A DNA stretch of 59,835 nt, from sequence record PZ445421.1; one strand, 5' to 3'. Below, piece after piece: positions 1 through 58,190 of this stretch. The notes beneath the pieces are model-generated. The model searched no databases. It saw only the letters and a list, made by a program, of their open reading frames with translations, and had not been told where the DNA came from. The position numbers and the translations under genes were made by a program. Numbering within the stretch: the stretch's first letter is position 1; every line of letters begins with the position of its first letter. This DNA is from a phage.

Positions 1-1599
1 ATGGACTCAATGATTCAAACACCGTCCACTAAGGTAGTATGGAAACCACATCCAGGATCTCAAGTACTGGCACTGAGTTGTCCAGCAGATGAGATTTTAT
101 ATCATGGTACTCGTGGCCCTGGAAAGACCGATGCTCAGTTGATGCGTTTTCGTCGTTATGTTGGCATGGGGTATGGTAAACACTGGCGCGGTATCATTTT
201 TGACCGAGAATACAAAAACTTAGATGACTTAGTTGCAAAGTCACAGCGTTGGTTTCCTGAATTTAATGATGGTTGTAAATTCTTATCTTCCAAGTCAGAT
301 TATAAATGGGTGTGGCCTAGCGGCGAAGAACTAATGTTCCGTGTTGCTAAAAAGCCTAAGGATTACTGGCTGTACCACGGTCAGGAATTTCCATTTATTG
401 GATGGAACGAATTAACTAAATATCCTGATAGTGGGCTTTATGAAGCAATGAAGTCCTGTAACCGTACATCATTTGTTGCAGAAGAAAACCCGATAATTAT
501 TGACGGTGATGTGTATCGGAGAACTGGACGTCTTGTGCTTGTTCAGCCAGACCATGAATACGCAATGCAGTTCATACTGCCACCTTTGCCGTTGCAGATC
601 TTTTCTACGACTAACCCATTTGGAGTTGGACATAACTGGGTCAAGAAATATTTTATTAACTCTTGCCCTCTTGGGTCCATGAAGAAGGAAGTGACAAACG
701 TCTTCAACCCGCGTACACAGAAACGGGAAGACGTAGTTCGAACTCGCTGCCATATATTTGGTTCGTATCGAGAGAACCGCAACTTGACACCAGAATATGT
801 TGCGCAGCTTGTAAACATTGACGATCCTAACCTCCGTATGGCATGGCTCGGTGGTAGCTGGGATATTACGTCAGGTGGGATGTTCGACGACCTGTGGCGC
901 CAGAATATACATGTGGTCAAACCATTTCCAATACCTCACTCCTGGAGAATTGATAGATCATTTGACTGGGGCTCAAGTAAACCGTTCTCTGTTGGTTGGT
1001 GGGCAAGAAGTGATGGTAGCGATATCGTGTATCCAAATGGGCGTCGTGTACGAACAGTACGAGGTGACTTATTTAGGATCATGGAATGGTATGGTACTAA
1101 CGGAAAACCGAACGAAGGTTTAAGATTATTGGATTCTGAAATTGCTCGTGGTATCATCGTCAGGGAAATTGAAGCTGGTTTATACGGTCGCGTAGTTCCA
1201 GGCCCTGCTGATAACAGCATTTGGGACGTTAAGGACGGTAACAGTACCGCAGCAACAATGTCTAAGCCAATAACTATCAATGGTCGGTCTTATCCTGGTG
1301 TACAGTGGATCCGAAGTGATAAATCCCCTGGATCACGTAAAGCAGGTTGGAAGCGAATGCGGGAATATTTAGCTGCTTCAATTCCGGATCCTAAGGTTGC
1401 CGCTTTGCGTGAAAGACCTTCTATGTTTATTTTTGACAACTGTCATCATTTTATAGATCTTGTTCCAACTCTTGCTAGAGACGAAGATGATCTTGATGAT
1501 GTCGATACTGATTCTGAGGACCACATTGCTGACGAAGCTCGTTATCGCGTAGCCAACGAAGCACGTGGCGGTAGTATCGGTAAGACTGTTGGAACATAA
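1..1599 (+). CDS. terL: terminase large subunit
   Basis: 532-aa ORF with N-terminal P-loop 'GTRGPGKT', Walker-B-like 'FIGWNE' and acidic C-terminal nuclease-like region; followed 12 nt later by the portal gene; small-terminase-like ORF lies at the window 3' end. Confidence 0.85.
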   Translation: MDSMIQTPSTKVVWKPHPGSQVLALSCPADEILYHGTRGPGKTDAQLMRFRRYVGMGYGKHWRGIIFDREYKNLDDLVAKSQRWFPEFNDGCKFLSSKSDYKWVWPSGEELMFRVAKKPKDYWLYHGQEFPFIGWNELTKYPDSGLYEAMKSCNRTSFVAEENPIIIDGDVYRRTGRLVLVQPDHEYAMQFILPPLPLQIFSTTNPFGVGHNWVKKYFINSCPLGSMKKEVTNVFNPRTQKREDVVRTRCHIFGSYRENRNLTPEYVAQLVNIDDPNLRMAWLGGSWDITSGGMFDDLWRQNIHVVKPFPIPHSWRIDRSFDWGSSKPFSVGWWARSDGSDIVYPNGRRVRTVRGDLFRIMEWYGTNGKPNEGLRLLDSEIARGIIVREIEAGLYGRVVPGPADNSIWDVKDGNSTAATMSKPITINGRSYPGVQWIRSDKSPGSRKAGWKRMREYLAASIPDPKVAALRERPSMFIFDNCHHFIDLVPTLARDEDDLDDVDTDSEDHIADEARYRVANEARGGSIGKTVGT

Positions 1600-1611
1600 G
1601 GAGTTTAACAG

Positions 1612-3138
1612 ATGGCCATTTCTTCGGTTCATCCTAAATATTTACAGTTTAGTGCATTATGGTTGAAGATGCGGGACTGTTTTCTTGGAGCTGACCACAT
1701 CAAAGCTCAAGGCACTTTGTATCTTCCACCGACACCTGCTATGCGTTATGACGGTATGAAACCAGGCGAAGATGGCTATATCCGTTACAACGATTATAAA
1801 GAACGTGCAGTGTTCCCGGAGTATGTCGCTGATGCGGTAGTTAATCACAGTGGTATGCTTCATAGTAAGTCAGCTATCATTCAGTTACCTGCTGCAATGG
1901 AACCCCTTCGTCAATCTGCTACCAGCAAGCGCGAAGGTTTAGATCAGCTACTACGCCGTATAAACGAGCTACAGCTACGCGATGGTCGTCTTGGCCTTCT
2001 GTTGGAGCTGCCAGCGGGAAGTACCCGTGATACGTTGCCGTACATCGCAGTATACGAGGCGTTAAGTATACGAAACTGGGACGACGGTGAAGATGATCTT
2101 GGTTCACTTAACCTTAACCTAGTTGTTCTGGATGAGTCCAAAGAAGTATTGGACAAGACTTCACTTGATTGGACTTATAAAGTTCAATATCGAGTTCTTG
2201 TTCTTGGAAGCGCCAATGTAGACGAACCGACAGATAGCGGTTACGTGTATGGGCAGTACATGACAGAACTACTTCCTGGTGAAGATGACGAACCAGAAGA
2301 GGTGAGCTCTGACGTTGTAGTCCCTCAGTATAAAGGTACTCCGCTTGAGCAGATACCTTTCGTATTTTGTAACGCTATGGACTTAGTCCCAGAACCAGAT
2401 AAACCACCGCTACTTGCATTAGCAAACAGATGCATTTCCATTTATCATGGTGAAGCTGATTATCGACAGGCTTTGTTTATGCAGAGCCAGGATACGCTGG
2501 TTGTTCGCGGTGGTATTACGAACAGTGACGCAGTTGATGATAAAGCTCCTGTTCGTGTTGGTGCTGGTGCTCGTATTGATGTATCTCCAGACGGTGATGC
2601 TAAATACATTGGTACTAATTCACAAGGTTTACCGGAGCAACGTAAAGCACTTGAAGCTGACCATAAAGACGCTCAGACCCGTTCCGGGCATTTAACCAGT
2701 GCAGAAAGTGCTTCTCAAGAATCTGGCGATGCTCTGGAAACACGTCTTATCACTAAGACTGCTTCATTAGTTGGTATTGCTAAGACTGGTGCTGCTGCGT
2801 TAGAAAAAATCCTTCGTATTTGTGCTATATGGATGGGATTAAATCCAGACGAAGTTAAAGTTACACCTAACCTTGACTTCAGCAAAGCTAATATTGAAGG
2901 CCAGGAATTGGTGCAGGTGCAGACTGCCAAGAATCTTGGTGCTCCGTTATGTGCTGAGTCTATGCACAATTGGTTGCAGGATAAGGGAATGACCTCTTTG
3001 ACGTTTGAAGAGGAGATGAAACGGCTTGAGGAGGAGCGCAAAGAATACCCGTTCCTTTTACCTCAAGTTAAAAACGATCAGAACCAAATCCAGCAAACAA
3101 CTGGAGAACAGACGGGGAATGCAAATGCCGCTAAGTAA
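1612..3138 (+). CDS. portal protein
   Basis: 508-aa ORF directly after terL, SD 'AAGGAG' upstream; size and synteny typical of portal; no motif-level proof. Confidence 0.7.
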   Translation: MAISSVHPKYLQFSALWLKMRDCFLGADHIKAQGTLYLPPTPAMRYDGMKPGEDGYIRYNDYKERAVFPEYVADAVVNHSGMLHSKSAIIQLPAAMEPLRQSATSKREGLDQLLRRINELQLRDGRLGLLLELPAGSTRDTLPYIAVYEALSIRNWDDGEDDLGSLNLNLVVLDESKEVLDKTSLDWTYKVQYRVLVLGSANVDEPTDSGYVYGQYMTELLPGEDDEPEEVSSDVVVPQYKGTPLEQIPFVFCNAMDLVPEPDKPPLLALANRCISIYHGEADYRQALFMQSQDTLVVRGGITNSDAVDDKAPVRVGAGARIDVSPDGDAKYIGTNSQGLPEQRKALEADHKDAQTRSGHLTSAESASQESGDALETRLITKTASLVGIAKTGAAALEKILRICAIWMGLNPDEVKVTPNLDFSKANIEGQELVQVQTAKNLGAPLCAESMHNWLQDKGMTSLTFEEEMKRLEEERKEYPFLLPQVKNDQNQIQQTTGEQTGNANAAK

Positions 3139-3210
3139 AGGCGTGCAGCGTAAAGCAAAAGCCAAGAGTAAAAAATAGTTGCTTCATTCTTAATGATGTA
3201 TTAGTTTTAT

Positions 3211-3241
3211 AGCGCGGTAGAACGGTCTATCGCGCTTTTTA
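3211..3241 (+). terminator. rho-independent terminator (11-bp stem with one G.U, tetraloop, T5 run)
   Basis: AGCGCGGTAGA-acgg-TCTATCGCGCT followed by TTTTT, between portal stop and scaffold start. Confidence 0.55.
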
Positions 3242-3268
3242 GTGGAACGGTCCACAATGGAGAATTTT

Positions 3269-4147
3269 ATGAACAAATATCACATTCATCTAGCGGTAGC
3301 TTATTCCGCTGGCTTCTTCCAGTCTATGCCTCGTTTTGGTGCATTGGAACTTGAATATACTTCTGAAGATGAAATCCCGGAAAACGCGCGTGAGTATTAT
3401 TCCCAAGAAGGCGATAAGTGGATCCTCACTGGTGTAAAGGGTGGTGGCAAACAGAATATTGACAGGTTGCAATCTGCACTTGAAAAAGAACGCAACGATC
3501 ATAAAGCGGTCAAGAGTAAGCTAAGTAAGCTGAACGGACGTGATATTGACGAACTCTTGCAGCGCGACGCTGAATATGAAGAGCTTAAACTGCGTGCGGA
3601 TAAAGTTGATGATGAAAAGTTGGAGCAAATCATTAACGTACGAATCCGTAACAAGTTAACTCCGCTTGAGCGTGAACGTGACGAGCTGAAAAACAAACTT
3701 TCTACCTATGAGAAGCAAGTAGAAGAGCTGACCACAAAAGAGAAGAACCGCATCGTTAAGACCGCTCTTAGCAAGGCTGCAATGTCTGCTAAAGTGATCA
3801 CGGAAGCTATTGACGACGTGGAACTGATTGGTTCTCGTTTGTTTGAGCTCACCGAAGACGGTCAGGTTGTGACACGCGACGGTGTGGGCGTAACTCCTGG
3901 CATCACTCCAGAAATGTGGTTACAGGACATTCAAGATAAGAAACCTCACTGGTTCCCTGGAAACGTTGGCGGTGGTGCTGGTGGCTCGCGTACTCCTGGC
4001 GCTGCTGGTAAGAACCCGTGGAGTGCCGACGGTTGGAACCTTACTGAGCAGGGTAAAATTCTTCGTGAAAATCCTGAAAAAGCAGGCCGTTTGGCAGCCA
4101 TGGCTGGTGTGGACTTGAAGCGTCCAGTACGTCCAGTTAAAAAATAA
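3269..4147 (+). CDS. putative head scaffolding protein
   Basis: Track ORF 3242..4147 begins at GTG; internal ATG at 3269 has SD 'GGAG'; long charged coiled-coil-like central region and Gly-rich C-terminus, positioned between portal and major capsid genes. Confidence 0.5.
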   Translation: MNKYHIHLAVAYSAGFFQSMPRFGALELEYTSEDEIPENAREYYSQEGDKWILTGVKGGGKQNIDRLQSALEKERNDHKAVKSKLSKLNGRDIDELLQRDAEYEELKLRADKVDDEKLEQIINVRIRNKLTPLERERDELKNKLSTYEKQVEELTTKEKNRIVKTALSKAAMSAKVITEAIDDVELIGSRLFELTEDGQVVTRDGVGVTPGITPEMWLQDIQDKKPHWFPGNVGGGAGGSRTPGAAGKNPWSADGWNLTEQGKILRENPEKAGRLAAMAGVDLKRPVRPVKK

Positions 4148-4166
4148 TAAAATTTGTTGACACTCC

Positions 4167-4199
4167 CTCCGGTTGGTGTTAGTTTTACATCAACCGGAG
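4167..4199 (+). other. stem-loop (9-bp perfect inverted repeat CTCCGGTTG/CAACCGGAG, 15-nt loop) with no U-tract
   Basis: Read directly; lies between scaffold stop and capsid start, adjacent to a TTGACA hexamer at 4158-4163. Confidence 0.3.
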
Positions 4200-4285
4200 C
4201 ACGGGCTCCGATCAATCAAGGATTATTGGAGCCTCCCACGGCGGTAGAGTTCCAAAGTAAATCGATTAACTTTGCGGAGACTACC

Positions 4286-5389
4286 ATGTCTAAAATTCTG
4301 TCAGCTCCGATGCTTAATTTACGAGCTACAAATTCAATTCTTCTGTCTGCTGTTCGTCGTGGTGCGATCACTGAACTTGCAGATGTTATCGTTCCAGAGA
4401 TCTTCGTACCATATGTGCAGAACCGCACAACTGAAAAGTCCCGACTGATTCAGTCTGGTGCTATTGAGATTTCTGAGCGTCTTAACGCTGCATTGATGGG
4501 TGAAGGTACTACCTTTAACCAGCGTTTCTTTAAAGACCTGGATCGTGACGAAGAAAACGTTTCAAGCGCAAGCGATGCAACCGATTCTACTCCTGGCGGT
4601 ATCAAATCCGGGCGTGAAATCCAGATCCGTCTGTCCCGTAACCATTCATGGGGTTCTGCGGACCTGCTGGACAGCCTGATCTCCCCTGACCCGCTGGATG
4701 CTATCATCAATCTGGTGGCAAGCTACCGTCAGAGCCGTCTGCAACGTGCATTCGTTGCAACTGTAGGCGGTGTGTTTGCTATGAACGCCGCTGCTCCGAC
4801 TGGTTCCGGTGATAAGAAGTCCACCCATGTTCAGAACGATATGACCCATGACATCTCTGGTTCATCCTTCACCGATGGTGTGACTAACTTCAACCCGGCC
4901 GGTGTTATCCTGGCTGCTGGTACTATGGGTGACTCCCTGAACGAGCTGTCTATGATGATGGTACACAGTGTGGTATACCAGCGTATGCAGCTTATGAACC
5001 TGATCGACTTCATCCCGGATGCTCGTGCTGAAGTAATGATCCCGACCTACATGGGCCGTGAAGTTATCGTTGATGATATGATGCCTCACGATGGTGGTAA
5101 GTACGAAACCTGGCTGGTTGGTCGTGGTGCATTCCAGTTAGGTGTCGGTTCACCGAAAGTTCCTGTTGAAACTGAACGTAAACCTGCATCCTACAAAGGT
5201 GGTGGTTCTGAAATCCTGTTCCACCGCTGGGAAAACATCATTCACCCTGTCGGTCACGCATGGGTTGGTACTGCTGCTGAAGGTGGTCCGGATAACGCCG
5301 CTCTGAAGACTGCTACTAACTGGGCTCGTGTATTCCCTGAGCGTAAACAGATTAAGATTGCTCGCCTGATCACTCGCGAACACGCTTAA
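4286..5389 (+). CDS. major capsid protein
   Basis: Track ORF 4154..5389 starts at TTG inside the hairpin; internal ATG 4286 has SD 'GGAGA'; 367 aa, position after scaffold, followed by strong terminator. Confidence 0.7.
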   Translation: MSKILSAPMLNLRATNSILLSAVRRGAITELADVIVPEIFVPYVQNRTTEKSRLIQSGAIEISERLNAALMGEGTTFNQRFFKDLDRDEENVSSASDATDSTPGGIKSGREIQIRLSRNHSWGSADLLDSLISPDPLDAIINLVASYRQSRLQRAFVATVGGVFAMNAAAPTGSGDKKSTHVQNDMTHDISGSSFTDGVTNFNPAGVILAAGTMGDSLNELSMMMVHSVVYQRMQLMNLIDFIPDARAEVMIPTYMGREVIVDDMMPHDGGKYETWLVGRGAFQLGVGSPKVPVETERKPASYKGGGSEILFHRWENIIHPVGHAWVGTAAEGGPDNAALKTATNWARVFPERKQIKIARLITREHA

Positions 5390-22350: not shown

Positions 22351-22377
22351 AGCGCGTCTTCGGGCGCGCTTTTTATT
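22351..22377 (+). terminator. rho-independent terminator (UUCG tetraloop)
   Basis: AGCGCGTC-ttcg-GGCGCGCT followed by TTTTTATT, right after fibre stop. Confidence 0.7.
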
Positions 22378-22504
22378 GACTGCCAATCCCAATTTACAAA
22401 ATCTTTACATTTGGATCATTGTAAAAAGCATGTTAAGGGATATGCTTTATTTCGTAACCAGTTGGTTACATCCGCTTAACAAATCCATATATGGAGATTT
22501 TCCT

Positions 22505-22753
22505 ATGTCTGACATGACTCTTTTACCTACTAATCTCGGTGGCGACGGTTTCGGCGGTGAAGCTGGTGCGGCTGGTATTGGTTCCTGGATCGGCGGCTTA
22601 ATTGGTTCCTGGATCGGAAATGGTTGGGGTGGTGGTTGGGCATCCAAGAATCAAATAAGAAACAAGAAAAGAAGAATAAGTAGAGACAACGTACGGCATT
22701 TTGGGGCATTTTATTGTGGGCCAGTACAAATGTATTGGCCCACATTTTATTAA
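22505..22753 (+). CDS. small Gly/Trp-rich glycine-zipper protein (82 aa)
   Basis: Track ORF 22376..22753 starts at TTG inside the terminator T-run; ATG 22505 has SD 'GGAG'; sequence MSDMTLLPTNLGG|DGFGGEAGAAGIGSWIGGLIGSWIGNGWGGGW... then basic tail. Confidence 0.5.
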   Translation: MSDMTLLPTNLGGDGFGGEAGAAGIGSWIGGLIGSWIGNGWGGGWASKNQIRNKKRRISRDNVRHFGAFYCGPVQMYWPTFY

Positions 22754-45130: not shown

Positions 45131-45409
45131 TTATTTGCTGACACGTATAGCTCTACCTGTTAAGAAGGTGTATCCACAGTGCCGCATTAAGTCACGTTCT
45201 TCTATTACACTTCGTAACTGGCGTGACAGCGTTTCATAGTAAGGACGGACCTCGTTCTTACTGATAGCTAAAGCATAGGCGAACAGTTGTTCCGAGTCAA
45301 TACGATTAGACTTGATTCTTTTGATTGCCTGCTCAATTCCTGGGAACTCTTCATCCTGGTATAGAGCACCGTACACAATTTTGATAGCTGCTAGATTGTA
45401 ACTGGACAT
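45131..45409 (-). CDS. hypothetical protein
   Basis: 92-aa ORF. Confidence 0.5.
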   Translation of the reverse strand: MSSYNLAAIKIVYGALYQDEEFPGIEQAIKRIKSNRIDSEQLFAYALAISKNEVRPYYETLSRQLRSVIEERDLMRHCGYTFLTGRAIRVSK

Positions 45410-49644: not shown

Positions 49645-49921
49645 GAGGATTGTCGCTTACTTTATAGTCTATATTAACACACGTTTCTTTGAAATCCATA
49701 CCTTCCAGGTCTACGTTATAACAGATATCGATTTCAATACCTGGCTCAGTTAATACCCAAAAACCATCGCCATCAATACATTCGCACCACTGAGGTTCAT
49801 TCTCGAACGCAGTTAAAGTACCGTCCTCGTCGACCGCAAGGTATTTCGCCCACACAGGAACAAACAACACTTCACCGAAGTAGCGAACAGCCTTCTGAGT
49901 AAGATTAATTTGCATCTTCAC
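49628..49921 (-). CDS. hypothetical protein
   Basis: 97-aa ORF. Confidence 0.5.
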   Translation of the reverse strand: MKMQINLTQKAVRYFGEVLFVPVWAKYLAVDEDGTLTAFENEPQWCECIDGDGFWVLTEPGIEIDICYNVDLEGMDFKETCVNIDYKVSDNPHDHTE

Positions 49922-50258
49922 CTCCCGTTACCAGTTCCAAAGTCTCACGAAGCAGACGCTCGAGCTTCGATTTATTTTTGATAAGCTGATATTGCCGATC
50001 CACCACAAGCGCCTTCTGACGGTTACGCATAAGGTATTCGAACGCACTTTGAATATCTTCGACTTTACCTTCGTAGCCTAAAGCCTTCGCAACGTGCGAC
50101 ATACGATGCAGCAAGAAGTCCGCCGAGTCCATAACGTCCATCGCATTGACAATAGCGTCAAGTAAATCCGGATTTGCAATCGGGTCCAGCTGTTTAGCCT
50201 GTTCAAGAAGACGCACCTTTGCTTTATATAAAGACGAATTGCTTATTGTTTGCATCAC
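49905..50258 (-). CDS. hypothetical protein
   Basis: 117-aa ORF. Confidence 0.5.
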   Translation of the reverse strand: MMQTISNSSLYKAKVRLLEQAKQLDPIANPDLLDAIVNAMDVMDSADFLLHRMSHVAKALGYEGKVEDIQSAFEYLMRNRQKALVVDRQYQLIKNKSKLERLLRETLELVTGGEDAN

Positions 50259-54809: not shown

Positions 54810-55097
54810 ATGTTCGTTCTGGCTTTCAATAGTGCAATATGGCTAGGTATCAACTGGATCCTTGCAATTATATTAGGTCTTGTGATCTGGTATGTACCGT
54901 TTATGCGTTACGCTGTTATCATTTCGCTTGTATATTTAGTTGTTAAACATTTCTTCGTATGGTGCGTATGCAATCCACAAGCTGCAAACATCAAACGTAA
55001 GAAAGCGAACTTCTTTAGTGTGCTTATTTTAGGTTCACTGATTGTGTACGCATGGTTGCTTGGTGCGCAGAACTTAGGTTGGTTCACGTTGCCTTAA
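54810..55097 (+). CDS. small multi-pass membrane protein (95 aa)
   Basis: Three hydrophobic segments; strong SD 'GAGAGGAG'; first gene of the rightward block after the iteron region. Confidence 0.55.
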   Translation: MFVLAFNSAIWLGINWILAIILGLVIWYVPFMRYAVIISLVYLVVKHFFVWCVCNPQAANIKRKKANFFSVLILGSLIVYAWLLGAQNLGWFTLP

Positions 55098-55182
55098 TGT
55101 GGTCACTAATTGTTGCGGCCGGCTATGTTAATCAACTTGCGTATCCTGTTATAGTTATTCCGTTAACGTTAAAGGGGTTTAT

Positions 55183-55548
55183 ATGAACGAGAATATAGTT
55201 AAAGCCTGGTCTATCTTACGACCACAGCTGAAAGACGATCGTGTCGCTTTTGTTTTATGTCCGAGCAATGAGTATCGCCGGAAGCTCGAAGAAGTGTTGC
55301 GCGAAGATCCTGAGTTCGTTCGCTGTGTACAACTGTCGCGCGAGTCATCTGTGGTGCAGTTTGATCGTTTCCATCTTCGTTTGGTTTCTCATCGCAGAGA
55401 CTCGTATGAAGACACTGTTATTCGTACGAGTGGCTTCCATTGTGATATTGCCATTCTTGACTGCGAATTAAGTATTGAGCAGAAACAAGACTTATATAAT
55501 CTTGCTCGTGAACGTCATGGTGAACTGTTAATTGTGGAAGTGCAATAA
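55183..55548 (+). CDS. hypothetical protein
   Basis: 121-aa ORF. Confidence 0.5.
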   Translation: MNENIVKAWSILRPQLKDDRVAFVLCPSNEYRRKLEEVLREDPEFVRCVQLSRESSVVQFDRFHLRLVSHRRDSYEDTVIRTSGFHCDIAILDCELSIEQKQDLYNLARERHGELLIVEVQ

Positions 55549-55886
55549 TGGCCAAAGATATCGTTATTCCGAAAATGTATTGTCAGCTCCGTGATACTTT
55601 ATTACAAAGCGGTTGGATTATTAGTCATACCGATGTGAATGATACTTATATTGTTCTTATACCACCTGAAGGAACGATATCCTGCATTTTGCACTACATG
55701 CCCGAAGCGAAGACGGTTTATCCGAACGGGTCATTCCTGCTTCGTTTGCGCTCTGATACATGGAAGATCCAGACGGATACCTGTGCAATTGACGAGAATA
55801 CCAGTAAAGAGTTTATTCGCAAGCTGACTCAGCTGAATAAAATCTACGAGCATGTTAAATTTGATTTGTTTAAGGAAGTGTTCTAA
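55548..55886 (+). CDS. hypothetical protein
   Basis: 112-aa ORF, ATG overlaps upstream stop. Confidence 0.5.
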   Translation: MAKDIVIPKMYCQLRDTLLQSGWIISHTDVNDTYIVLIPPEGTISCILHYMPEAKTVYPNGSFLLRLRSDTWKIQTDTCAIDENTSKEFIRKLTQLNKIYEHVKFDLFKEVF

Positions 55887-56326
55887 TGATTACTATCAAC
55901 GATCCAATCAAGCATAAAACTCAGAAAAGCATAATGGCTTGCATCCCTACCTGCCTTGCTATGCTTCTTGACAAAGACCCTGAGCAGGTATATGACGAGT
56001 TCACGAAGGATTATATTCGTGGTTTTACTGACGTGTCGAACTATCTGTATAAGCACGGTGTCTTTGCGCAGCCGCATATCACTGCCGGTATGCACCAGAT
56101 CCGACCTGGGCGCTTGTATCTTGCGACTGTACCCTCTTTGCAGTTACCTGGACTTTTCCATCAGATCATTATTGACGCTCGCTTCGGTGATGTTAAGGTA
56201 TACGACCCATGTAAAGGTCTGCAAGGGAAACAATACTATTCCTATGACCACATTGCAGAGGGTAATGATCTGGCGTATCCTCTGCGGTCTTTCCTGATCG
56301 ATTATGAAATTATATTGCCGGGGTGA
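55886..56326 (+). CDS. papain-fold cysteine peptidase, C39-like
   Basis: 'Q-x5-CIPTCLAM' resembles the C39 'Q...CGxAxLxM' Cys block; downstream 'HQIIID...DP' resembles the His...Asp-Pro block. Confidence 0.45.
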   Translation: MITINDPIKHKTQKSIMACIPTCLAMLLDKDPEQVYDEFTKDYIRGFTDVSNYLYKHGVFAQPHITAGMHQIRPGRLYLATVPSLQLPGLFHQIIIDARFGDVKVYDPCKGLQGKQYYSYDHIAEGNDLAYPLRSFLIDYEIILPG

Positions 56327-56329
56327 TTT

Positions 56330-56683
56330 ATGGGCTTGCAACGTTTTGACAATGCAGAACTCGCGTGTGAATTTGCAAAGCGCAAGTTTGCTAAAACAGG
56401 TACGCCGCGATGTGTACATGCGGCTATTGGGCAAAATGGGGCAAAGTATTGGTACGTTGGTACAGTAGCTCAGATTAAGCGAAGATTCGCGACTACGCCC
56501 GAAATGCGCCGGCTTGGGTCCCCTACACTTGTGCGAAACAGGCAGTTGGATAAAGAGGAAATTTATCGATTTCTTAGGAATTACACTGGTAAAGAGAATA
56601 GATTTCAGGTTGCAGCGAAAGAGTTTAATATCGGTCTTTCCACTGCTTATAAAATTTATCACATATATGGGCGTTTAATATGA
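56330..56683 (+). CDS. hypothetical protein
   Basis: 117-aa ORF. Confidence 0.5.
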   Translation: MGLQRFDNAELACEFAKRKFAKTGTPRCVHAAIGQNGAKYWYVGTVAQIKRRFATTPEMRRLGSPTLVRNRQLDKEEIYRFLRNYTGKENRFQVAAKEFNIGLSTAYKIYHIYGRLI

Positions 56684-57174
56684 CCGCAATTGCTTATCGT
56701 AATGGTATATTGGCTGTAGATCGTCAGGTTACATGGGGTAATATTGCAACAACTACAGATAAAGTTCACACTGTCAATATTCCAGGAATTGGACTTTGTC
56801 TTGTTGCGATGTCTGGTAAATTACGTGCTGTAGAAGACATTGTAGAGCATCTCAAAACTACGGTTCGTGGACGTAAAGAACCTTTCTCGGATTTAATTCC
56901 AGATTCCCGTTATGGTATTGCGGTGACACAAGATCTTGTTGTGTATCCTATCTACGGGGATGGTAAATTAGGTCTACCGGACACTAATGAATTTATTGCG
57001 GAAGGTAGCGCGTTTGAGTTCCTGATGGGTGCAATGGCGGGAGGTTGCACCGCTGAAGAGGCAGTACGACTGGCGTGCGTATATTGCGACAGTTGTGGTC
57101 AAGGGGTTAAGTTCTATGACGTAGCCTACACTCTTAAAGTGGCGCAGTGTAAAATCGAGGAGAAACCATTTTGA
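56680..57174 (+). CDS. Ntn-hydrolase of the HslV/proteasome beta type (candidate)
   Basis: N-terminal 'MTAIAYRNGILAVDRQVTWGN' (Thr-2) and C-terminal 'AEGSAFEFLMGAMAGG...' follow the HslV pattern. Confidence 0.45.
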   Translation: MTAIAYRNGILAVDRQVTWGNIATTTDKVHTVNIPGIGLCLVAMSGKLRAVEDIVEHLKTTVRGRKEPFSDLIPDSRYGIAVTQDLVVYPIYGDGKLGLPDTNEFIAEGSAFEFLMGAMAGGCTAEEAVRLACVYCDSCGQGVKFYDVAYTLKVAQCKIEEKPF

Positions 57175-57362
57175 AGAAACCTAAGACTGGTCTGTTCCTT
57201 TGTGTTGGTGGACCTTTTGACGGTAAGCGTATACGCTTAACAACATCAGATTTGTATCCAAGTTCCTCCGTTTTCTCTGTTCCATCTTATAAAAACGGTG
57301 AGAAGGGGAAATACGTCTGCAATGATGAAATTCGAAACAGTGTAATCTGGAGAACATCGTGA
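57171..57362 (+). CDS. hypothetical protein
   Basis: 63-aa ORF. Confidence 0.4.
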   Translation: MKKPKTGLFLCVGGPFDGKRIRLTTSDLYPSSSVFSVPSYKNGEKGKYVCNDEIRNSVIWRTS

Positions 57363-57586
57363 GCGATACTACAAATGCGCAATTAGCCGCTGCAAGAGTG
57401 TATATGCGCGGAGCTGCCGCTGAGATTGATGCTTTGCCTCAATTTGAAAAGCATGTACAGCAACTTGAACATAAATTTAAGGCTCTTAAAGACTTAGGAG
57501 ATAAGAAGGACGCCATAGCCTTTCTTCTTGCTATCCAATACTTGTCTATGGGGGTTGGTGACAAAGTATGTTCCTTAGAAGAATAA
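57359..57586 (+). CDS. hypothetical protein
   Basis: 75-aa ORF, GTG start with SD 'GGAGA'. Confidence 0.4.
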   Translation: MSDTTNAQLAAARVYMRGAAAEIDALPQFEKHVQQLEHKFKALKDLGDKKDAIAFLLAIQYLSMGVGDKVCSLEE

Positions 57587-58068
57587 TTGGTATTGTTGCA
57601 CCTTGGATACCACTTGTCATAATTGTTATTCTAGCCAACTGGGCTTATGACAATGCCATAGAATCAGCTAGAAAGGAGGGTTTCGATGCCGGTGTGTCGT
57701 ACCAAAAAGAAACTCAGAAAGCGGTTGATTTCGAGGAGGAGAAACGGAGAGCGTATGAGAAAGACACTATCGAACGTCAGTACAGATCTCGTATTGAATC
57801 TTTGGTTGCCGATCTTAATAATTATCGTGCTACTAATGACAGGTTGCACAACGAAATCGCAACCGTCCGTAAGTACCTCGGTGACGCTACCGGCCCTCAG
57901 CCCGACAGCAAGACAACCGCCCAGATCGCCCGTGTGCTCACCGAGCTGTATTCAGAAAGCGTCACAGAATACAGACAAGTGGCAGAAGAGGCTGAAAAGT
58001 ATCGTATTGCCGGCGAGCAGTGCGAACTACAATATGATGCAATGCGAAATCCGCGTAAACAAAATTGA
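57568..58068 (+). CDS. i-spanin (Rz-like)
   Basis: N-terminal TM segment then helical periplasmic domain, Cys near C-terminus; overall pattern like lambda Rz; contains an embedded +1-frame lipoprotein ORF. Confidence 0.65.
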   Translation: MFLRRIIGIVAPWIPLVIIVILANWAYDNAIESARKEGFDAGVSYQKETQKAVDFEEEKRRAYEKDTIERQYRSRIESLVADLNNYRATNDRLHNEIATVRKYLGDATGPQPDSKTTAQIARVLTELYSESVTEYRQVAEEAEKYRIAGEQCELQYDAMRNPRKQN

Positions 58069-58099
58069 TAAACTGCAAAGTCCTTGCCGGGTTGCGTAA
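57755..58099 (+). CDS. o-spanin (Rz1-like lipoprotein), embedded in +1 frame
   Basis: Lipobox-like 'LLMTGC' followed by Pro-rich sequence; start could instead be ATG 57686 (strong SD). Confidence 0.5.
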   Translation: MRKTLSNVSTDLVLNLWLPILIIIVLLMTGCTTKSQPSVSTSVTLPALSPTARQPPRSPVCSPSCIQKASQNTDKWQKRLKSIVLPASSANYNMMQCEIRVNKIDKLQSPCRVA

Positions 58100-58190
58100 C
58101 TAAACGTTCAATCTTAATTGCACATAATTGATTGTGTACATGTGATAATTCAACTATGCTCTATTCGGTTTAACTGAATGGAGCTTTTTT

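Follow-up and report, generated by a model that had tools for sequence, protein, structure and literature searches.

The PCAT/AMS C39 domains, which include LahT150, the ComA peptidase domain and PCAT1 (Pfam PF03412), are modules of about 140–150 residues with a papain-like alpha/beta fold, in which a Gln-x5-Cys block, a His and an Asp-Pro-x-x-Gly motif follow each other in register. Structural work on LahT150 has pointed to Gln21 as the oxyanion candidate and has assigned the catalytic triad to Cys27, His101 and Asp117 (PMC6363468). The gene considered here, bas20_0083, lies on a 59,835-nucleotide stretch of phage DNA (sequence record PZ445421.1, the whole of which is called the window below), and its product is predicted to be a divergent, free-standing, transporter-less C39-like cysteine peptidase. 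It resembles the PCAT/AMS domains in length, in fold and in the order and register of these residues, but it is unfused, has no transporter or double-glycine (GG) leader peptide nearby, scores below the Pfam cut-off, is borne by a phage and is predicted to be cytoplasmic. Over 3 kb round the gene the sequence agrees to 100% with that of Escherichia phage FritzHoffmann (Bas20, MZ501068.1; Nonagvirus, Queuovirinae), of which the window is most likely the whole genome; in the record of this phage the product is labelled 'hypothetical protein'. An earlier, sequence-only reading of the window had described it as a free C39 domain devoid of any ATP-binding cassette (ABC) transporter portion, which agrees with the present results, as the open reading frame (ORF) ends after 146 codons and the annotation of the FritzHoffmann genome contains no ABC transporter.

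Other described relatives differ in architecture or in setting. FapD, from the Pseudomonas Fap operon (NF058616), also has a C39-type domain as a protein of its own; however, it acts in a secreted amyloid pathway (its model is named 'fibril amyloid maturation endopeptidase'), whereas bas20_0083 has no signal peptide, no Fap partners and no match to that model. Peptidase_C39_2-type domains, such as that of Bacillus anthracis 3erv, form part of larger cell-wall hydrolases with several domains, as does the N5 domain of mycobacteriophage LysA, in phages of Gram-positive or mycolata hosts, while the family described here is single-domain, occurs in phages of Gammaproteobacteria and is mostly found away from lysis genes. 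The methanogen prophage enzymes PeiW, PeiP and PeiR (MEROPS C71) are named archaeal pseudomurein isopeptidases, PeiR being 228 residues long against the 146 of bas20_0083, and the profile match to them (E 0.37) is confined to one segment. By the tests applied, bas20_0083 could be placed neither in the pseudomurein endoisopeptidases (Pei) of C71 nor in Peptidase_C70 (AvrRpt2), the label carried by the ESCO3 orthologue. Tox-PL-C39, the CdiA-CT of Citrobacter rodentium (8ssm) and the DUF4150/PAAR toxin 9l5u are delivered by type VI secretion or contact-dependent inhibition systems and come with an immunity gene, in contrast to the phage family, which has no conserved downstream 'immunity' gene. 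Finally, the similarity to Josephin, UfSP and ZUFSP deubiquitinase-type proteases and to bacterial ubiquitin 'clippases' is lower than that to C39.

The blocks on which the sequence-only reading had relied, Q-x5-C-IPT-CLAM and HQIIID...DP, are present exactly in the ORF, as Q13-KSIMA-C19-IPT-C23LAM and H92-QIIID97 ... D107-P108. Taken by itself, the motif is only mildly unusual and constitutes weak evidence, since the pattern Q-x5-C-x(55-95)-H-x(12-18)-DP has a single match when the window is translated in all six frames, where residue shuffles lead one to expect 0.11. The C39 relationship is carried instead by conservation and by the comparison of profiles. Across 99 relatives (26–54% identical to bas20_0083) the only invariant columns are Q13, C19, H92, D107 and P108, which is the pattern expected of an oxyanion Gln and a Cys/His/Asp triad under selection; homologues at 52–97% identity retain Q13, C19, C23, H92, D97 and D107. 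When the profile of the 99 relatives was aligned by hhalign to a profile built round LahT150 from 28 genuine double-glycine peptidase domains, all of them with PF03412, a match of 100 columns was obtained (92% probability, E 6.7e-7), in which Q13, C19, H92, D107-P108 and G111 fall on Q21, C27, H101, D117-P118 and G121 of LahT150. The Cys/His/Asp arrangement claimed earlier thus holds, and includes the Gln. Against the LahT150 sequence alone only 25 columns aligned, at 71%, so that the alignment of C39 domains is required for the longer match.

Structure prediction points in the same direction. The AlphaFold2 model of bas20_0083 is papain-like and of high predicted confidence (pLDDT 93.4, pTM 0.90), and it places the predicted nucleophile Cys at the N-terminus of a helix and the subsequent His on a beta-strand, as is characteristic of clan CA. 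The top Foldseek matches of this model all belong to clan CA and are weak, with a best E of 1.8e-3 and template-modelling scores of 0.54–0.56 to PCAT1 and LahT; staphopains, papain-like toxins, Josephin/UfSP deubiquitinases and AvrPphB are also among its structural neighbours. At the level of single sequences, PHROG 4049 ('unknown function') matches bas20_0083 with E 1.4e-54 (residues 7–144 on profile positions 2–140 of 145) and is also matched by homologues from four other lineages, and 9 of the 99 relatives match Pfam Peptidase_C39 (PF03412) at E<=0.01, the best with E 2.4e-6. The gathering cut-off of PF03412 is 22 bits, and the homologues tested from phage isolates stay below it, with 14.3 bits for CAjan, 17.8 bits for JM-2012 and no match at E<=1 for seven others. 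NCBIfam C39 peptidase models, including C39_FapD (NF058616), are weakly matched by two relatives (best E 5.2e-4), the UniRef name for the Kuttervirus, CAjan and PA_L9 homologues is 'Peptidase C39 domain-containing protein', and searches of PDB sequences with phmmer and hmmsearch returned nothing significant for bas20_0083 (best E 0.35). It is very probable that bas20_0083 is an active clan-CA hydrolase of C39-like fold. Its fold and chemistry are of an already known kind, some homologues being tagged as C39 in the databases, and as a well-supported candidate protease it is in itself no surprise.

The family is widely distributed. An exhaustive profile search collected 674 cluster representatives, nearly all of them free-standing and of 135–160 residues, and tblastn located the family in 174 GenBank phage records. 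Its members occur in Queuovirinae, Kuttervirus, Samunavirus, Henunavirus, Schizotequatrovirus, Knuthellervirus and many Vibrio phages, as well as in a 167-kb marine phage with phiKZ-like genes; they are present in coliphages of the BASEL collection, in KVP40-like phages and in Mu-like and lambdoid prophages, and copies in bacterial genomes emerged from a further profile search. The hosts named in GenBank are almost all Gammaproteobacteria, and nearly all of the records examined annotate the gene as 'hypothetical protein'. The region of bas20_0083 itself is kept at 90% DNA identity or more in 18/18 matching phage records. In the few longer family members, a YunG-like domain and a weak match to a zinc ribbon, probably gene-call fusions, were the only additions found, and none of these proteins has a wall-binding or transporter domain.

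The genomic contexts, sampled locus by locus by hand, are heterogeneous. In an all-against-all BLAST of the neighbouring ORFs from nine phage lineages no conserved partner gene was detected, and neighbours are shared only in the form of a holin/spanin cassette, which Nonagvirus, Seuratvirus and Pseudomonas phage PMBT14 have in common. In lambdoid prophages of Enterobacter hormaechei, Citrobacter farmeri and Serratia the gene sits in the early-left operon, preceded by RecT/Exo/Gam-like or Dam-type methylase genes and followed immediately by xis/int; another lambdoid phage has it in a nin-type region beside RusA, and in a Mu-like prophage it lies directly 3' of MuA-MuB and ahead of Kil, GemA and Mor, in the semi-essential early region. 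A 73-kb phage with its own RNA polymerase carries it among small early-type genes, and in Kuttervirus (Salmonella phage SeSz-1, positions 1577..5263 of locus L006) it is located between the genes for the large and the second topoisomerase II subunit and shares 4 nt with the downstream one. In lambda, P22 and Mu, such regions house early, dispensable genes for host modulation and anti-defence. By analogy with these phages, the PHROG 4049 family may include functions of the same kind.

We propose that bas20_0083 is a small soluble clan-CA cysteine peptidase without a signal peptide, a divergent relative of the C39 double-glycine peptidase domain, which would act in the cytoplasm of the infected cell. 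By homology, the scissile bond would be attacked by Cys19, which stands at the N-terminus of helix 1, with His92 of the central beta-sheet serving as base; Asp107, located in the D-P-x-x-G turn, would orient the His, and Gln13 would line the oxyanion hole. The enzyme may work as a site-specific endopeptidase or isopeptidase, so that a substrate encoded elsewhere would undergo limited proteolysis or be cut at an isopeptide bond. A cytoplasmic role in trans is proposed because there is neither a transporter nor an adjacent leader peptide, and because the gene occupies early accessory regions in temperate, Mu-like and RNA-polymerase-encoding phages; on balance, it is probable that bas20_0083 has an accessory function in the cytoplasm, in the early or middle phase of infection. 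The most likely substrate would be a conserved protein of the gammaproteobacterial host, cut in the course of host takeover or counter-defence, a proposal that we make tentatively and consider less likely than not. The cut may fall after small residues, as in C39 enzymes, although retention of a Gly-Gly-type preference at P2-P1 is doubtful. For the account as a whole, that of a cytoplasmic, host-directed C39-like protease, the chances appear evenly balanced.

Several observations weigh against it. At E<=1 bas20_0083 has no match in Pfam, so that the search with Peptidase_C39 and C39_2 that had been suggested as a check of the sequence-only reading did not bear it out, and NCBIfam gave no match either. 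Since the protein lacks a Pfam match of its own, only 9/99 relatives touch PF03412 and the isolates remain under 22 bits, it is to be regarded as C39-like and not as core C39: of the earlier label, the homology seen between profiles and the residues in register stand, while membership of the core Pfam family does not. The literature searches found no activity, substrate or expression data for any family member, and PADLOC revealed no relation of bas20_0083 to defence proteins. The placement in early regions is guilt by association, to which a promoter scan of the window adds nothing informative (13 sites against 12.5 expected in shuffles). In Nonagvirus, Seuratvirus and PMBT14, moreover, the gene is about 2 kb or less from holin/spanin genes, which also fits a lysis-related role.

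The features of the locus are collected in Table 1. The ATG of bas20_0083 shares bases with the stop of the preceding gene (TAATG, 55884-55888), which suggests translational coupling, and most of the neighbouring ORFs from 55183 on abut or overlap by 1–4 nt. The hairpin downstream of this gene string implies that the spanins would share a transcript with the upstream genes, both peptidase genes included, apart from the endolysin and holin.

Table 1. Features of the bas20_0083 locus and of the glycine-rich ORF, in window coordinates
Feature	Position	Strand	Remarks
bas20_0083, predicted stand-alone C39-like cysteine peptidase, PHROG 4049	55886..56326	+	Complete ORF, ATG..TGA, 146 aa plus stop
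Shine-Dalgarno-like AAGGAAG	55872..55878	+	8–14 nt 5' of the bas20_0083 ATG, read from the sequence
Gln13 codon CAG, predicted oxyanion-hole residue	55922..55924	+	Invariant in 99 relatives; aligned to LahT150 Gln21
Cys19 codon TGC, predicted nucleophile	55940..55942	+	Invariant; start of helix 1 (19–28) in the model; aligned to LahT150 Cys27
His92 codon CAT, predicted general base	56159..56161	+	Invariant; strand 91–100; aligned to LahT150 His101
Asp107-Pro108 codons GAC CCA, predicted third triad member	56204..56209	+	D and P invariant, G111 near-invariant; D-P-x-x-G motif common to C39 domains; aligned to LahT150 Asp117-Pro118...Gly121
Tightly packed gene string, bas20_0079 to the spanins, including the peptidase gene	54810..58099	+	From ORF coordinates
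HslV-family N-terminal nucleophile (Ntn) peptidase gene	56680..57174	+	phrog_1040, E 7.5e-36; one gene downstream of bas20_0083
Strong terminator-like hairpin, 12 pairs plus T-run	58158..58184	+	Terminator scan; between spanin and endolysin genes, ahead of endolysin and holin
Glycine-zipper-like ORF	22376..22753 (start at 22505 in the sequence-only reading)	+	3' of the lateral tail fibre gene; varies strongly among Nonagviruses; the part 22505..22753 falls within bas20_0022 (annotated start 22431); no Pfam match

An auxiliary role in lysis is the first alternative to be weighed. The protein would then be an envelope endopeptidase or isopeptidase, directed to the stem peptides of peptidoglycan or to the Lpp-peptidoglycan link, that reaches the periplasm via the holin. 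In Nonagvirus and Seuratvirus the gene is upstream of, and co-directional with, the spanin, endolysin and holin genes, the Nonagvirus string running into the spanins, and in PMBT14 it comes directly after holin and spanin. In mycobacteriophage endolysins the N5 peptidase domain is of the C39-like type (PMC3314691), and a Gordonia phage endolysin is among the BFVD matches of bas20_0083 (E 2.9e-3). However, the four prophage types examined and Kuttervirus place the gene among early, recombination, transposition or replication genes, away from lysis genes; in the nin-type region it lies about 3 kb upstream of them, and no lysis gene was seen nearby in Vibrio phage K300 or in the RNA-polymerase-encoding phage. 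The lack of a signal peptide, and of a wall-binding domain in the longer relatives, speaks against a lysis enzyme as well, and FritzHoffmann already possesses a complete set of endolysin, holin and spanins. We consider this role improbable.

It could also be argued that the papain-like scaffold serves another chemistry (deamidase, transglutaminase, acyltransferase, glutathione-type amidase or even glycosidase) or that it is a non-catalytic binding module. All these activities occur on papain-like folds, and papain-like domains of polymorphic toxins have been proposed to be thiol peptidases or transglutaminases (PMC3482391). In 2026, glycosidase activity was reported for an archaeal protein of C39-like type (PMC13642728), and HlyB bears an inactive C39-like domain (PMC6363468). 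Against this, the best neighbours of bas20_0083 in sequence and structure are true peptidases, and a degenerate binding module is disfavoured by the full Gln/Cys/His/Asp set, which is invariant in the C39 register and fits a hydrolase; the explanation is improbable, with about one chance in ten.

A deubiquitinase-like deconjugase would be a special form of counter-defence, in which the enzyme cuts a bacterial conjugate, ubiquitin-like or of the CD-NTase type, behind its C-terminal Gly-Gly or Gly and so undoes a conjugation-based defence of the host. Josephin-2 is the second Foldseek match, Gly-Gly-adjacent cutting is common to C39 enzymes and deubiquitinase-type proteases, and the early accessory context of the gene fits counter-defence. 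The similarity to deubiquitinases nevertheless ranks below that to C39, no PADLOC defence component was matched, and the 146-residue protein has no extra ubiquitin-binding module. We know of no phage deconjugase of this kind that has been described, and to our knowledge the E. coli K-12 laboratory host is devoid of such conjugation systems, yet the gene is conserved. An enzyme of this type is therefore held to be unlikely to a marked degree.

The presence of a second peptidase gene so close to bas20_0083 raises the question of whether it matures a phage protein, for example an operon partner such as the HslV-like peptidase. The C39-like and HslV genes are 0–1 genes apart in Nonagvirus, Seuratvirus, Klebsiella phages K9PH25C2 and K4PH164, Cronobacter phage CSP1 and Salmonella phage STP-SP5, even though their C39-like proteins are only about 35% identical, and the genes are tightly packed. 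Beyond Nonagvirus and Seuratvirus, the pairing extends to related 57–61 kb siphophages but is absent from other lineages, which makes lineage synteny its simplest explanation. Most phages with either the C39-like or the HslV-like gene lack a detectable copy of the other (174 against 62 records, with different genus profiles), and no phage protein encoded near the gene is common to all lineages; a maturation protease is accordingly given little credence. The particular case of the HslV-like neighbour was dropped, as that protein starts with Met-Thr, from which methionine aminopeptidase should expose the nucleophile with no need of a protease. The HslV/proteasome-beta-like protein begins M-T-A-I, and Thr2 could be its nucleophile.

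The remaining alternative concerns the glycine-rich ORF, at 22505..22753 in bas20_0022, which had been suggested as a GG-leader substrate of the peptidase. It begins with MSDMTLLPTNLGG, after which it continues with DGFGG (DGFGGEAGAAGIGSW), so that there is a GG about 13 residues in. By tblastn the full-length ORF is found in FritzHoffmann only: in 14 other Nonagvirus records the match is limited to the last 24 codons, in a frame abutting the 3' end of the convergent DNA-polymerase gene, ChristophMerian has it shortened to 44 residues with the same N-terminus (L009, 307..441), and JenK1 has an unrelated 89-residue ORF at the site (L008, 332..601), while both of these phages retain the peptidase locus at 92–96% DNA identity. 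GG leaders require hydrophobic residues at -4 and -12 (PMC6363468), and the 13-residue 'leader' of this ORF, with N at -4 and S at -12, is a poor fit to that consensus. A scan for GG-leader patterns in all ORFs of the genome and in 11 loci round family members yielded only holin transmembrane segments and off-frame ORFs, as expected by chance. That the enzyme strips such a leader from a phage peptide, giving a bacteriocin-like or membrane-active product without a dedicated ABC exporter, has in its favour the GG, the shortened ChristophMerian copy and the fact that the nearest relatives in sequence and structure are GG-leader peptidases, but it can hardly be maintained for a substrate that is not conserved, has no Pfam match and is encoded without an exporter, when the peptidase is kept in 18/18 records and its family in 174 records from many families, and action of bas20_0083 on this peptide is very unlikely. 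Elsewhere in the window, bas20_0067 (49905..50255, minus strand) encodes a 116-residue helical protein whose C-terminus, LERLLRETLELVTGG followed by EDAN, looks like a double-glycine leader or a ubiquitin-like GG tail with four further residues; this is probably a coincidence, as the pattern is common by chance.

As a cytoplasmic, host-directed protease, bas20_0083 would belong to a kind of phage enzyme that is hardly known, namely proteases aimed at the host and not at the phage's own capsids or at the cell wall. The literature searches found no study of the PHROG 4049 family or of phage C39-like proteases, and in the literature searched the free form without transporter and leader, its restriction to phages and prophages and its early accessory position are not described. 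The family is noteworthy for being small, for its invariant catalytic set, for its presence in at least 174 sequenced phages and for its tendency towards gene regions of host takeover and anti-defence. If the substrate is a host protein, it would represent a new point of attack in infection and the enzyme a compact sequence-specific protease tool; if counter-defence or takeover is indeed the function, it would be the first such phage factor of the C39 lineage. Should bas20_0083 turn out to be a housekeeping enzyme or an accessory of lysis, the finding would be ordinary, and the gain would be an annotation better than 'hypothetical protein'. A far-reaching extension of the proposal would see PHROG 4049 as widespread, horizontally mobile minimal Gly-Gly-type cysteine proteases, expressed early by virulent and temperate gammaproteobacterial phages, that cut a conserved host protein and thereby disable a defence (for example by clipping or deconjugating a ubiquitin-like or CD-NTase conjugate) or shut down a host process. 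In this full form it is speculative and improbable.

Some minor observations concern other genes of the window. The 92-residue product of bas20_0058 (45131..45409, minus strand) is annotated in GenBank as 'putative cysteine protease', a name for which Pfam gave no support, all matches being noise with E>0.02. Coordinates in MZ501068.1 equal those of the window plus 519, as shown for window positions 55000-58000, and the record has 59834 bases against the 59835 of the window. The ORF that follows bas20_0083 and separates the two peptidase genes, bas20_0084 (56330..56683, plus strand), encodes a 117-residue protein with only weak C-terminal matches to the helix-turn-helix models HTH_7 and HTH_23 (E ~0.1). 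In a related Klebsiella phage, vB_Kpn2-P2, the annotation 'late transcriptional activator' is given to a gene that overlaps the HslV-like match.

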